Shown here in pieces: positions 5,633 through 32,605 of a stretch of DNA of 32,606 bases. Both the position numbers and the translations under genes were made by a program. This DNA comes from Candidatus Rifleibacteriota bacterium. Its GTDB lineage: Bacteria; Muiribacteriota; Ozemobacteria; Ozemobacterales; Ozemobacteraceae. Location: assembly GCA_051747585.1 (NCBI GenBank), contig JBNJGH010000028.1, positions 1 through 32,606 of the forward strand, read 5' to 3'. Position 1 is the first letter of the stretch. Every line of letters starts with the position of its first letter. The notes beneath the pieces were generated by a model. It did no database searches and was not told the origin of the DNA. It saw nothing but the letters and a program-made list of their open reading frames with translations.

Positions 5633-7351
5633 TTACTCTGCTATACCAAGATTTTGTTCGAATTGTTTTTGTGCATCCATAACAAATTCCACAATGGTTT
5701 TTTCGTGCTCAGGTGAGATATTGTTAAAGGAAATAATACATTCGTGAACTTCTTTGGTCGCAGCTGATGGAAGGTCTTCCGGAGAAGCAGTGCCGGCACC
5801 GAGTTTAAGTCGCACGAGTCGCCCCTGAACACCTTGGATAAAATTGCTGCCAATCTGAAAGGCAAGAATAATGTATTTACCCTGTTCGACGTCTTCGCTG
5901 GTTTCAACAACACAACCCCCGGCAGAAAGGTTGGTAATGACCCCTCGCATTTCAAAATCACTGCCTGAAATACTACCGTCAATTAACTCACCTGAAAGCA
6001 GAACTTTGAATTTACATGGAATCCTCGTTTCGGTTCTGATTGCTGATCTTTTATTGGTTCCTTCAACTTCAAAGTCAAACGGAACAAGGGCATTCTGGAA
6101 AACATCGGACAGAGTTCTAAGCTCTTTTGCGCTACTGCTTGTCTGATCGACAATAACGGTTTTACTTAAAGCGGTATTGGCAATATTTTGAATCTGTAGA
6201 GATATGTCGTCAGTAATCTGAGAAATTGTATTAACTTTCTGGTACATAACATCGGCTGTCTGGCTTTGGCGTTCAGCAGATTGACTTATATCTTTTATAA
6301 TATCGTTAAGCTGGTTAGTTGTTTGTACCATCGAGCCAAGACTGGATTCAACCGTGCTGATAACTTCCATACCCTGATTAACCTGCGAAGTATTGTTCTG
6401 CATCATTTCAGCTGCATTTTCGGTTTTCTGCAAAATATCGTTAATCAGGTTATTAATTTTTTTTGAGGATTCGGCGGAACCACGGGCAAGCTTTCTAACT
6501 TCTTCTGCAACAACGGCGAAGCCTCGTCCCTGTTCGCCGGCTCTGGCAGCCTCAATCGCAGCATTAAGAGCCAACAGGTTTGTTTTTTCGGCAATATTAG
6601 CTATTTCAGTAAGAATTGTTCCGATCTGTTTACTGCGGTCATTCAGATCATTAACCAGAGTTGCAGAGCCATCCGTTAATTCCTTGATTTTAAGCATTTT
6701 CTGAACAGATTCTTTAACCGACATCTGAGTTGATTTTGCTCTTTCAGATACGCTTTGGCTGTCGTCTTTGGCAATTATCAGTTTGGAACTTACATCTTTT
6801 GATAAGCTGAAGCTGCTTTCGAGGGAAGAAATTGTTTCTCTCAGATTCGCAGCGTTGTCCAATGCTTTATCATTGGTTTCACCGACACCATCAACAATTT
6901 CTTTAATTACCTGCGAACTGATCTGAGCCGTTCGGTCCAGATCAATCGAGGCTTCTTCAAGTTTGAAAGAAATAATTAGAACTCGTTTCAAAACTGACAT
7001 GACCATTCTAAACATCTGGTCAAAAACTTCGAGCTCTTTACTAAGACCCTTTTTATCTGATGAAAAGGCTTCAGGCTTAAGACCGACAGTGTTGGTCAAA
7101 TCCTTGGAAATTGCTGAAACTATACCTCTTAAAACCGATCTGCCAAACCAGCCGATAATTACACCGCAAACCAGGCCAAGCATAATTGAGGCGGCAATAA
7201 AAACAGAACGGACAGAGCTGGGAACCTTGGCAATTGTCATTCCCAGACCGGCGCAACATGCACCAAATATTAATCCAATCAGCAGAGCAAAGAACCATAA
7301 ACTTTTTTGCGATTTTGTTTTATTATTAATTAATAGTGAATGAAGAGCCAT
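5633..7351 (-). CDS. Methyl-accepting chemotaxis protein with C-terminal PilZ domain
   Basis: Two N-terminal TM helices; MCP hairpin [38 protein letters not shown]-terminal RSAIR (RxxxR) and NLSAGG ((D/N)xSxxG) PilZ motifs. Confidence 0.88.
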
Positions 7352-13675: not shown

Positions 13676-13717
13676 AAAAAACCGCGAACCATAATAAAAA
13701 TTGTTCGCGGTTTTTTT
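13676..13717. terminator. Bidirectional intrinsic terminator
   Basis: AAAAAACCGCGAAC-13-nt loop-GTTCGCGGTTTTTTT between the converging micropeptide unit and deoC. Confidence 0.85.
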
Positions 13718-13722
13718 AGTTT

Positions 13723-15243
13723 CTAATAACCTTTGCCTGTATCTTTTTCTTCTCGAACAATAGCGACAGATGCGCTTGCGCCAATTCTTGTCGCTCCCAT
13801 TTGTATCATTTGCCGGGCAGTTTCAGTATCACGTATTCCGCCACTGGCTTTAACGCCCATATCGGGGCCAACGACCTGGCGCATAAGGCAGACATCTTCG
13901 AGGGTTGCTCCGCCGCTGCTGAATCCGGTCGAGGTTTTTACAAAGTCAGCTCCTGCAAGTTTAGAAAGTTCACAGGCTTTCGTTTTTTCTTCATCGTTAA
14001 GCAGAGCGGTTTCAAGTATTACTTTAACAGTGTTGCCGTTGGCAGCTTCTACTACGCGGGCAATATCATTTTTTACAAGCTCATAATCTTTTGATTTTAA
14101 AGCGCCAACATTGATTACCATGTCGATTTCCGTAGCGCCATTTGCAACTGCGTCTCGTGTTTCCATGGCTTTTACAAAGGTCGAGGTTGCTCCAAGGGGG
14201 AAGCCGATAACGGTGCATACTTTAACCGGAGTTCCTCTGAGCATCTGGGCAGCCAGTGCCACGTTGGCAGGATTCACGCAAACCGATGCAAAGCCGTTTT
14301 GTTGTGCTTCCTGGCAAAGCTTAACTATTTGGTCTTTGGTAACATTGGGCTTTAATAAAGTGTGGTCAATGTATTTTGCCAGTTCCTTGCCGGGCAGTGG
14401 AGCATCCAAACCTTTATCTATTCTGTTTGCTCCAGCTTCAATCACTTCTTTTACTTTGTTTTGACAATAAGTTACGCAACTGCCATAAGATTTTGTGCAG
14501 TCTTCAGCACAATCATTCGTAGGAGTTGTGGAATTACCGCTTGAGCTTTGGGAGAATGTGGGCGTATTTGCCGCAGGCAATGAGGCAGGGGCTTGACTAC
14601 AGGTCGTGCAGGAAGCGCAATTTCCGGCTGCACAATCTGAGCATTTGAAGGTAGGGGTAACATGCATGCCCGGAATTTTATGGAAAATTACACCCATAGA
14701 TTCGAGTTCGCGACGATAATTGTCAATTTTCTTTGCTACACCGGCTGGGTAATATCTATTTGAATCAATTATTGCTTCGTCGGCTATGGTAATTTTTATA
14801 CCGTCCATGAGGGCTTGAGTAAGAACTATAGTTGCAAAGCTGTCTGCTATTAGAGCAGCTGATTTTGCCAGACTGTTGATTGACATCGAAGGAATAATGA
14901 GGTGTTGGACATCTGCCAACGCGAGGTGGGCAGCGGTATTGTCGGCATGAATCAAATTGAAGTCGCTTTGTAAAGCAGGAGCGTTAAAGTTTCTATAAAC
15001 ATAAGAAGAAACAATTACCTTGCTGCTGGTCGGAATAATACTTTTTATCTGGCCAACGACCTGATCGATAACTTTAAGATTTGCGGTTAAAAGGACAGCA
15101 GTTTTTTCAGTTAAAAGTTTGCTGTCCGGAAGCGCTGAAACTTGACGCTGAGGAGGTGGAGAATAGGCAGAACCACGATTGGCTGATTCTGACTTGAGTT
15201 TCAACATTACTTCTTTGGCAATTTGTTCAACAATAGCTTCCAT
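13723..15243 (-). CDS. deoC: Deoxyribose-phosphate aldolase fused to an N-terminal encapsulation-like peptide, a flavoprotein-like domain and Cys-rich linkers
   Basis: Residues about 288-506: [41 protein letters not shown] (Schiff-base Lys), [16 protein letters not shown]. About 290 extra N-terminal residues. Confidence 0.92.
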
Positions 15244-15245
15244 TA

Positions 15246-15566
15246 TTAGCCTCCTGCCTGAGCTGATTCAAAACTGGATTTTTCAAAAATAATTTTATTT
15301 TTAAGATCTATGGTATCAATAATTCCTATAATAGCGGCATCTGCCGGTGCTTTGCTTGTTCCGAGAAGATCGTTAACCGAGCTGCCTTCTTTAACTACCA
15401 GCACGAGCTCGTCAATGTCTGCTCCCATAAAATCAATTGTCAGTAGTTCTTCGCCTTTAGCTTTAAGCTGCAGGTCAACAGGTTGCACCAGCAATAGAGG
15501 TTTTTTGTCAAAAGTACTGTTTTTAACAGTAGAAACAACCTTTTTTATAACTTTTCCTATAACCAT
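15246..15566 (-). CDS. Bacterial microcompartment vertex protein (BMC-P, EutN/CcmL family)
   Basis: [15 protein letters not shown]...LLLVQP...[14 protein letters not shown]...[13 protein letters not shown] follows the EutN/CcmL pattern. Confidence 0.9.
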
Positions 15567-15568
15567 TT

Positions 15569-15829
15569 TCAGCTTTCAATTTTGTCGACGATGCCAAGAA
15601 TTGTAGCATCGGAAGGCGGTCTTGTACTAAAGGGGAAAGAAGCTTCAGAGCCTCCGCAAAGAAAAACGGTTTCACCATTGCCTGCTCCTACTGAGTCACA
15701 AGCAACAAAAGGTCTTCCTTTCGGCTTGCCGGCTGCATTGATTTTGGTTACAAGCAGAAGCTTCAAACCTTCAAGCTGTCTATCTTTACAGGTGCAGACG
15801 GCGTTGCCTAAAACTTTTCCCAGATACAT
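15569..15829 (-). CDS. Bacterial microcompartment vertex protein (BMC-P, EutN/CcmL family)
   Basis: MYLGKVLGNAVCTCKD..LEGLKLLLV...VACDSVGAGNGETV...GSEA...PSDATILGIVD follows the EutN/CcmL pattern. Confidence 0.92.
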   Translation of the reverse strand: MYLGKVLGNAVCTCKDRQLEGLKLLLVTKINAAGKPKGRPFVACDSVGAGNGETVFLCGGSEASFPFSTRPPSDATILGIVDKIES

Positions 15830-30898: not shown

Positions 30899-32605
30899 TT
30901 ATTTTTTACCGGTGTCTGTCTCTTTGCCGTCATCATCTTCTTCATCGTCTTCGTCGTCAGACTCCTCGTCGTCCTCTTCTTCTTCATTGTCTTCGTCGTC
31001 AGACTCCTCGTCATCCTCTTCTTCTTCATCGTCTTCGTCGTCAGACTCCTCGTCATCTTCTTCTTCTTCATCGTCGTCGTCAGACTCCTCGTCGTCCTCT
31101 TCTTCGTCGTCGTCTTCGTCGTCAGACTCCTCGTCGTCCTCTTCTTCGTCGTCGTCTTCGTCGTCAGACTCCTCGTCGTCCTCTTCTTCGTCGTCGTCTT
31201 CGTCGTCAGACTCCTCGTCATCTTCTTCTTCTTCATCGTCTTCGTCGTCAGACTCCTCGTTCTCTTCTTCTTCTTCTGCTGCTTCTTCGTCAGGCTCCTC
31301 AGCTTTTTTGCTCTTTTCCTGATCTGAATTTTCGTTGCTGGTATCTTCTTCTTCAGAATCCGGGTCTTCTTTGGCTTCTTCTAGTTTTATATCTTCAGTT
31401 TTATTTTTTTTCTTTTTAATTTTATCGATAATGGGCTTTAATTTGTTTGTAAGAAGTTCTAGTTTTGCACTAACTAAACTTTTTAATTTTCCCAGTTTGC
31501 CAGAGTCAGATGCGATTGGTTCTTTTTCTTTATCTTCTTCTGATTTTGTGGGTTCATCTTTGTTGTCTGGAGCAGTTTCAGCCTTATCCTCAGTTTTTTC
31601 CGGAGCATCAGCCTTTTTCTTTTTACGCAGATAATCAATGCCTCCGATAATACCTGCAATAACAATGACCAGACCAAGCCAGAATTTTTTAAGCATAGTT
31701 ATCCAGTAAAGTTTTGATGCACCTGCGGGGGGATTTTTCGCTTTTAAAGCTATATTCAGATGGCTGGAGGCTTTCTTTGGGTTTGGTCGTTTGGCATTGT
31801 AATAATAAAGAGCCATAGCATAATTTGCCAGAGGGTGTCGGCGATTATCTTTAATCAGTGAGCTTGCAAGTCTTCTTGCTCCATAATAATTAGGTTTATC
31901 CGAATTAATTTCTGCTTCTATACGGTATTCGAGGCCTTCCTGAGTTTCACCAGCCTCTTGGTTATCTTGAAATAACCTTGCAAGAGCTTTCCAGTTTTCT
32001 TTTTTTCTAAGAACTTTTGCCTTTGCAAAAACGGAATCGAATTTTCCGGTTAATTCTTCTTCTGGTTGCGCTTCTTTTTCTGCTTTATCTTTATCCTTTT
32101 CTTTTTGTTTCTGCTGAAATTTCTGACTTTGTTCTATAACCTCTGTTACAAGATTCAGGTTCTCATAGATTTGTTTGTTTAAGTTATCATCAACAATATT
32201 TTTGAAAGCAAGAAAACCTTCATAAACATCCAGATCTTTTTCTACAACTTTAATTTTGCTTTTATCTATTTTGGGAGGGGCTTTAAAATTAATTTCTTTA
32301 CTCTGGCCTGCATTCTGACTTTGAGATTTTTTTGCGGGATCTGTAAGGTGATCAACCAGACTTGAGAGGCTTTTTACCGTTTTATTGTTCGTTAGATCTT
32401 CAACAATATCTGCTCCGGGAAATTCTTTCTGAACCTTTGATGGTATTTCGTTTACTGCTTTTTTTACAGGGTATTGAATTGCTTTTTTTTGTGGTGTAGC
32501 AGGTTCCGGATAAGAATTAACCGGCGCTTTTTGGTATTTAACTTCTGGGGCGGGCAGATTTTCGAGAATAGACGAGACATCCTCTGCCTGGGTCGCGACT
32601 GGCAG
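30899..32605 (-). CDS. Single-pass membrane protein with hyperacidic C-terminal tail (5' end outside the window, at least 568 aa)
   Basis: The frame of the track's 305-aa ORF has no stop up to the window end (begins LPVATQAEDVSSILENLP, probably the end of a signal peptide); TM FWLGLVIVIAGIIGGI followed by RKKKK; D/E tail. Confidence 0.85.
   Translation of the reverse strand: MPVATQAEDVSSILENLPAPEVKYQKAPVNSYPEPATPQKKAIQYPVKKAVNEIPSKVQKEFPGADIVEDLTNNKTVKSLSSLVDHLTDPAKKSQSQNAGQSKEINFKAPPKIDKSKIKVVEKDLDVYEGFLAFKNIVDDNLNKQIYENLNLVTEVIEQSQKFQQKQKEKDKDKAEKEAQPEEELTGKFDSVFAKAKVLRKKENWKALARLFQDNQEAGETQEGLEYRIEAEINSDKPNYYGARRLASSLIKDNRRHPLANYAMALYYYNAKRPNPKKASSHLNIALKAKNPPAGASKLYWITMLKKFWLGLVIVIAGIIGGIDYLRKKKKADAPEKTEDKAETAPDNKDEPTKSEEDKEKEPIASDSGKLGKLKSLVSAKLELLTNKLKPIIDKIKKKKNKTEDIKLEEAKEDPDSEEEDTSNENSDQEKSKKAEEPDEEAAEEEEENEESDDEDDEEEEDDEESDDEDDDEEEDDEESDDEDDDEEEDDEESDDEDDDEEEDDEESDDDDEEEEDDEESDDEDDEEEEDDEESDDEDNEEEEDDEESDDEDDEEDDDGKETDTGKK
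30931..31275. repeat. Coding tandem repeat, 8 x about 42 nt (EESDDEDDEEEEDD)
   Basis: CAGACTCCTC anchors at 30958, 31000, 31042, 31081, 31123, 31165, 31207 and 31249 (period 42, one 39-nt unit). Confidence 0.95.

Follow-up and report, generated by a model that had tools for sequence, protein, structure and literature searches.

How does the single deoC gene of a genome come to encode a 506-residue protein in which the aldolase barrel takes up only the C-terminal part, and what is the long N-terminal arm for? We addressed this question in contig JBNJGH010000028.1 of a Candidatus Rifleibacteriota bacterium (GCA_051747585.1), the 32,606-nt forward strand of which is hereafter called the window; its features are collected in Table 1. 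The fusion gene is the third in a tight operon, behind two pentamer genes of a bacterial microcompartment (BMC), the second of which stops 2 nt ahead of the fusion's ATG. Our translation confirms the open reading frame, which lies on the minus strand, as well as the motifs that the initial annotation had quoted from the N-terminal helix and from residues 46–190. The two Cys clusters and the two adjacent upstream BMC-P genes were absent from that first reading.

Table 1. Features of the fusion gene and its operon, with one protein from related loci. Coordinates refer to the window unless a locus handle precedes them.
Feature	Residues	Coordinates	Strand	Basis or remark
BMC-P shell vertex protein, 86 aa; satellite operon gene 1		15569..15829	minus	PF03319, 91 bits
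BMC-P shell vertex protein, 106 aa; operon gene 2		15246..15566	minus	PF03319, 82 bits
Ribosome-binding site AGGAGG of fusion gene		15250..15255	minus	read from sequence; 6 nt before ATG
Fusion gene, 506 aa		13723..15243	minus	helix, HFCD-fold domain, two Cys clusters, DeoC barrel
Encapsulation-peptide-like helix	1–20	15184..15243	minus	modelled helix 2–20, pLDDT about 90
Pro/Ser-rich flexible linker	21–45	15109..15183	minus	low pLDDT
HFCD fold (PF02441-like, eut_hyp-related), without PXMNXXMW	46–190	14674..15108	minus	model and profiles
First Cys cluster C-x2-C-x4-C-x2-C (C201–C212)	196–216	14596..14658	minus	putative metal site
Second Cys cluster C-x3-C-x6-C-x3-C (C245–C260) and helix	243–285	14389..14517	minus	putative metal site
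DeoC/DERA barrel with D374, K436, K465	286–506	13723..14388	minus	TIGR00126
Hairpin with flanking A and T runs, likely bidirectional terminator, operon end		13676..13717	.	read from sequence
694–771-aa protein		L140:3958-6123, L141:7319-9478, L143:3754-5838, L146:5181-7481, L151:5093-7408, L152:4594-6888		

The long frame is not an assembly error, since 38 of 40 matches to residues 1–285 span nearly the whole of that segment and the barrel is present in all 38; a frameshift or an assembly chimera was rejected on these grounds. The terminator scanner, whose loop limit is 8 nt, did not list the hairpin at the operon end, a promoter scan returned sites no more numerous than in shuffled sequences, and from four metatranscriptome runs only short scattered pieces of the contig were obtained. 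Two other genes of the window deserve mention. One (5633-7351, minus strand) combines a methyl-accepting chemotaxis signalling domain with a C-terminal PilZ domain and adjoins a PilB/GspE-type ATPase. The other (30899-32605, minus strand) is cut by the contig end; its product has a stretch resembling a transmembrane segment and a long tail of acidic repeats, and a family profile search gave no family above cut-off for it.

The C-terminal part of the protein is the most readily understood. A complete DeoC barrel had been proposed, and this was borne out by a TIGR00126 match over residues 287–496 that scores 295 bits against the equivalog cut-off of 117.3. Its three catalytic residues are kept in 29/29 close orthologs and are spaced by 62 and 29 residues, as compared with 64 and 29 for D165, K229 and K258 of the assayed SPU6 enzyme from a sugar-phosphate-utilisation (SPU) microcompartment. 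Cleavage of deoxyribose 5-phosphate has been shown for the SPU6 enzyme only, and SPU DERA barrels are described as dimers (both PMC11585597).

The link to an SPU microcompartment, likewise suggested at the outset, is supported by another contig of the same genome, C8, which carries the main locus: a TPI-like gene, PTAC, BMC-H, BMC-P, AldDH, PduS, BMC-T, RpiB and DeoB, with no alcohol dehydrogenase. A lone BMC-H lies on contig C44, so that hexamer genes, on whose presence in the genome the proposal depended, are found in two places. In the published SPU7 type the main locus comprises AldDH, PTAC, RpiB, PduS/T, BMC-H and BMC-P (PMC8217296, supplement), a satellite consists of a pfam01791 gene and two BMC-P genes, BMC-P make up a triplet in all, a GrpU-type BMC-H lies elsewhere, and the hosts are Riflebacteria, Wallbacteria and their kin (PMC8217296). 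The main-locus gene set, the satellite, the BMC-P triplet and the lone BMC-H are all present here, and gene content and lineage assign the locus to this catalogued type; a homolog of 72% identity bears the label Ca. Rifleibacteriota. The fusion is part of a single complete locus in G001 and G002, two genomes from another family; their BMC-P genes at L042:8799-9365 and L149:8815-9342 have a C-terminal extension of about 90–100 residues, and archaeal pentamers with disordered tails have been reported (PMC12747264).

What, then, precedes the barrel? A PF02441/HFCD fold had been predicted for residues 46–190, and the fold part of this prediction stands. Residues 1–198 were modelled with a mean pLDDT of 88.5, and in a structure search against 48,161 chains the 11 best matches are all HFCD proteins (Z 11.4–15.1), among them the redox protein DmrB at Z 15.1; the first unrelated fold follows at 8.3. 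A profile built from ten aligned domains is in good agreement with this, with HFCD proteins making up 14 of 15 PDB matches. The family part did not hold for the query itself, which has no PF02441 match in Pfam; three of the ten aligned domains pass the PF02441 cut-off and three more score just below it. With the single sequence, the PDB returned only MacA (E 0.03), which we take as chance, and the Atlas search returned leads under 0.9. The domain is under purifying selection, with a dN/dS of 0.046 as against 0.028 for the barrel (seven independent pairs). In the full-length model the arm's domain and the barrel fold separately, joined by a low-confidence linker and without a fixed contact (pTM 0.48).

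Strongly kept in the domain is the motif P-x-x-S/T-x-N-S/T-x-x-K...D, with S/T121 in 49/49 and N123 in 44/49 fused rows, together with the Ser/Thr that ends strand 2 (S/T79, 49/49 fused rows). We take the kept residues P118, S121, N123, K127, D134 and S79 to correspond to FMN-phosphate contacts and the trimer interface in HFCD structures; the domain has a PASANT-like motif in common with HFCD flavoenzymes. Since these presumed FMN-phosphate residues are so strongly kept, a cofactor or ligand site may survive, with FMN as the putative ligand. The first loop reads T-A-N in the fusion's own family as opposed to T-G-G in 66–69 of 80 further fusions, and Tyr/Val stand in place of small residues at positions 81–82 in the same family.

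Beyond the fold and the PASANT-like motif the likeness to the HFCD flavoenzymes CoaC, EpiD, UbiX, DmrB and DpaB ends, as PXMNXXMW, the invariant His and the C-terminal flap with the catalytic Cys are all wanting. When aligned to the genome's own CoaC, every fused and free-standing row has PXMNXXMW replaced, and the flap is missing from the domain; the His near position 106 is not conserved (22/29 close orthologs; mostly E/W/R/D in 80 further fusions). Decarboxylation requires PXMNXXMW, the catalytic His and the flap with its Cys (PMC9604783). Because this motif and the flap are missing and the His is not conserved, we rejected an active cysteine decarboxylase.

Ahead of the domain, residues 2–20 were modelled as a free helix, the pattern of which resembles the N-termini of the genome's AldDH and PTAC and of E. 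coli PduM. The initial annotation had called it encapsulation-like. Its pattern, its conservation (dN/dS 0.058 for residues 1–29) and the modelled helix agree with this, but its hydrophobic moment does not add to the case, being unremarkable (reached by 18% of shuffles) and hence discarded as proof. From pattern and conservation we infer an encapsulation-type targeting peptide. The linker evolves faster, with a dN/dS of 0.32 for residues 30–45 and 0.28–0.32 for linkers overall (seven independent pairs throughout).

Between the domain and the barrel lie the two Cys clusters (dN/dS 0.075 and 0.060, the same seven pairs). The first is found in 29/29 close orthologs and 33/38 homologs, mainly in the fusion's own family, and is missing from four distant fusions that we aligned; the second is found in 28–29 of 29 close orthologs. 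At least four Cys precede the barrel in 76/80 further fusions, while P0049 and P0107 have none and family f10 also lacks the clusters. The Cys region has no Atlas match and was modelled at a pLDDT under 50. Compared by eye, the second cluster and its helix match an extension of the ordinary SPU6 DERA (PMC11585597, supplement). The HFCD domain thus lies between the targeting-type helix and this usual SPU extension.

Among free-standing proteins, those closest to the domain are eut_hyp-like: TIGR02536 is matched by 32 of 33, and the profile match reaches 99.9%. They are proteins of 240–290 residues made of a helix, the domain and a short C-terminal module. The fusion shares the helix and the same domain with them but differs in what follows, as the relatives end in the module of about 40 residues and the fusion continues with Cys clusters and DeoC; the module is present in 119/150 matches and in 0/17 fused representatives. 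TIGR02536 scores only 18–20 bits on the query over residues 107–189, below its cut-off of 152.6. The fusion domain is thus related to eut_hyp, not a member of it. A separate eut_hyp gene with an encapsulation peptide is part of SPU4 loci (PMC8217296, supplement).

Gene order ties these relatives to PduM. In Ilyobacter and Rahnella an eut_hyp-like gene lies between pduL and a pentamer gene, and in E. coli and Kosakonia pduM occupies the same place. Salmonella PduM has a structural role, joining core to shell, and carries a working targeting helix; with HHpred, a likeness of PduM to flavin-binding Rossmann folds was reported (PduM preprints). PduM therefore resembles the fusion's arm in its targeting helix, in the gene position of the free-standing domain relatives and in this reported Rossmann/flavoprotein likeness. 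Differences are the weak sequence match and the C-terminal module, which the PduM HMMs match and the fusion lacks. Comparing the domain with the PduM core (from two named sequences, E. coli and Kosakonia) gave 18% probability, E 0.0013 and a score of 24.1, where 30 shuffles reach 15.7. The query has no match to TIGR04493/PF15953, the relatives match these HMMs only through the C-terminal module, and direct membership of the PduM family was rejected for want of an HMM match to the query. No PduM turned up when 5 and 27 other genomes were searched.

The first gene of the main BMC locus (G000:C8:42828-43916; L008:8829-9917, plus strand) is TPI-like, and in 30/30 family orthologs its NWK, HSERR and YEP catalytic motifs are missing. 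Its first 130 residues resemble the fusion's flavoprotein-like domain (87.6% in hhalign, against no more than 2% in 20 shuffles) and are followed by a short module common to PduM and EutQ. An ordinary TPI is encoded on contig C255, and G001 and G002 have an intact TPI with the short module only. The TPI-like gene is likely a second pseudo-enzyme scaffold. RpiB (L008:14595-15059, on C8) has Asp at the position of the catalytic Cys, which is reported for all SPU RpiB and linked to negligible activity (Dwyer 2024, PMC11585597). A lone 231-aa eut_hyp-like gene on contig C13 (G000:C13:13115-13810, minus strand) encodes the flavoprotein fold and the C-terminal module with no evident targeting helix. 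No shell genes lie nearby; similar genes occur in most genomes of the family, including genus g12, and none was found in the shell-less genus g14. Possibly it is an unrecognised BMC accessory that could replace the domain lost in g12. Finally, in the 477-aa protein P0052, PTAC is fused to the same flavoprotein-like domain together with its C-terminal module.

The distribution of the arm shows what it goes with and what can do without it. Among 87 genomes of the phylum, 79 have one deoC; in 66 of the 79 it lies in an open frame of at least 450 residues, and the domain profile matches most of these 66. The long form is thus the usual form of deoC in the phylum. In genus g14, none of the 7 genomes (four with a completeness of 95% or more) contains a BMC domain or a match to the arm. 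In the three g14 loci fetched, the orthologous deoC encodes 223–241 aa with no pentamer genes beside it, and in two of the three the neighbours are as in the window and deoC is cut at the same position. The g14 genes group with the fused ones (95% SH-aLRT, in a barrel tree that missed 4 of 52 loci). The arm is lost in relatives without shell genes. One of the three g14 loci retains a helix vestige; at L139:4090-4815 (G040, a shell-less genome) it runs almost directly into the barrel of deoC.

Losses also occur where the compartment persists. The full BMC locus is kept in genus g12, from which the HFCD domain and the two Cys clusters have gone; in families f4 and f5, BMCs occur without the HFCD domain, and DeoC carries helix plus Cys or the helix only. 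The domain is therefore not needed for assembly. In families f5 and f11 we also noticed a 694–771-aa protein with a weakly DeoC-like N-terminus, encoded between deoC and deoB (Table 1). In a wider search, 17 fusions stand among the top 150 representatives (50% identity), and 80/80 new matches of the fusion profile carry the domain. When one distant fusion served as query, the 79 DeoC loci fetched contained three fusions, each beside shell genes. On a quick domain tree, which left out 19 near-duplicate rows, the origins of the fusions need six changes, of which strongly supported branches force only one.

How could such a protein work? DeoB would supply deoxyribose 5-phosphate, and cleavage of this substrate by the barrel inside the lumen would yield glyceraldehyde 3-phosphate and acetaldehyde, the latter to be processed by AldDH, PTAC and PduS/PduT. 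Contacts to the shell and to other cargo would be made by the N-terminal helix. The HFCD domain would form trimers like its solved relatives, and trimer and dimeric barrel together would yield a branched particle with many peptides, which would seed the core, with the Cys clusters binding a structural metal. HFCD proteins occur as trimers or dodecamers; CoaBC is a tetrahedron built from trimeric HFCD domains and dimeric partner domains (PMC7794376). We read the protein as the deoxyribose-5-phosphate aldolase of an SPU7 compartment, and consider it somewhat probable that its arm serves as a non-catalytic, PduM-like packing scaffold, gathering the aldolase and its targeting helices.

We lean towards this scaffold over a redox module, a ligand sensor and a neutral fusion because of the HFCD fold, the loss of the catalytic motif, the changed first loop, the gene position shared by eut_hyp-like genes and PduM, the HFCD trimers and the DERA dimers. 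That RpiB and the TPI-like gene, cargo of the same system, also look catalytically dead and that the arm is lost in g14, a genus without BMC domain, speaks for it as well. Against it count the retention of the presumed FMN-phosphate residues, the weakness of the direct PduM link, the compartments of g12, f4 and f5 that persist without the domain, and the missing interdomain contact in the full-length model. The first of these points speaks for a rival reading, in which the arm would be a working redox module, with FMN in the domain and Fe-S or another redox metal in the Cys clusters relaying electrons among AldDH-derived NADH, PduS and PduT. An electron-shuttle role has been suggested for BMC flavoproteins (Axen 2014, PMC4207490), the locus has PduS and BMC-T and no alcohol dehydrogenase, DmrB is among the top structural matches, and all eight Cys are kept in 28–29 of 29 close orthologs. 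We nevertheless regard a redox module as unlikely: it is in the fusion's very own family that the first loop has diverged most (to T-A-N), the Cys clusters are missing from P0049, P0107, family f10 and g12, the Cys region is poorly modelled and unmatched in the Atlas, and an aldolase needs no electrons.

A leftover phosphate pocket might instead bind a sugar phosphate, CoA or FMN and tune the aldolase or its packing. Presumed phosphate-binding residues kept while the catalytic motif has gone, along with strong purifying selection, are what such a ligand sensor would leave behind; however, no stable interface with the barrel is predicted across the long low-confidence linker, and the kept residues may serve no more than the stability of the fold or the trimer, which makes a sensor improbable. 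Less probable still, and in our view hardly credible, is a neutral read-through of eut_hyp-like and deoC neighbours, joined without function. The separate eut_hyp gene of SPU4 loci (PMC8217296, supplement) provides a possible starting point, BMC loci often fuse neighbours (RpiB-DERA, the PTAC-flavoprotein P0052), and the domain was lost at least once, in g12, with the BMC kept. Yet the long form makes up 66/79 of the phylum's deoC genes and recurs in at least 17 clusters at 50% identity and in archaea, and since the fused representatives are all without the C-terminal module (0/17), the junction points to remodelling rather than plain read-through. The packing scaffold can also be put in a bolder form, which we offer as speculation that may well prove wrong: the arm would be a natural C3-plus-C2 cage former, in which a trimerising pseudo-flavoprotein and a dimeric aldolase build a particle like the CoaBC tetrahedron or a core-seeding network, one of several dead-enzyme scaffolds next to the TPI-like gene, RpiB and the lone eut_hyp-like gene. 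If true, it would unite PduM, eut_hyp and the fusions as one metabolosome scaffold family, possibly gated by FMN or metal.

Few studies have dealt with SPU microcompartments, widespread as they are, and what flavoprotein-like genes do in BMC loci, where PF02441 has been noted (PMC4207490), has been a question since 2014. The gene described here bears on this question, as it offers a natural deletion series at one gene (full arm; helix only; helix plus Cys; nothing once the shell is gone), so that relatives provide ready-made constructs, and as gene order ties its domain to PduM.

Lastly, we compared the fusion with what has been described. The initial annotation had taken it to be undescribed, which does not hold: in most microcompartment operons of Hodarchaeales, DERA is fused to a flavoprotein domain, a combination called 'uncommon in BMC' (bioRxiv 2025.11.08.687404, PMC12747264). 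That report gives it one sentence and proposes no role; its table lists mostly 471–497-aa proteins with an N-terminal flavoprotein match of about 200 residues. Novelty is limited by this matching fusion of 2025; the locus type had been catalogued in 2021, and no new kind of system is involved. On the bacterial side, our literature searches returned no description of a flavoprotein-DERA fusion, though locus diagrams of PMC8217296 or some supplements may show one. In the passages of PMC8217296 available to us there is an RpiB-DERA fusion in SPU3 and the separate eut_hyp of SPU4, and no flavoprotein-DERA fusion; the text and five supplements of PMC11585597, as available, do not contain 'flavo' and give SPU7 DERA an N-terminal encapsulation peptide only. 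The protein in the window thus differs from the published SPU7 DERA in its flavoprotein-fold domain and Cys clusters, which the accessible parts of these two sources do not mention, and a fusion that is the usual DeoC across a bacterial phylum goes unmentioned in those descriptions of its locus type. Judged by description and table, the Hodarchaeales fusion shares with ours the order of domains, a similar size (about 470–500 aa there) and SPU-type loci with PduS/MNdh, BMC-T and PTAC. It differs in being archaeal, whereas the bacterial protein has a domain too diverged for Pfam, an extra Cys cluster and a satellite operon. Beyond the archaeal precedent, the present analysis shows that in SPU7 bacteria the fusion extends across a phylum, that relatives form a natural deletion series, that a further Cys cluster is present and that gene order links the domain to PduM.
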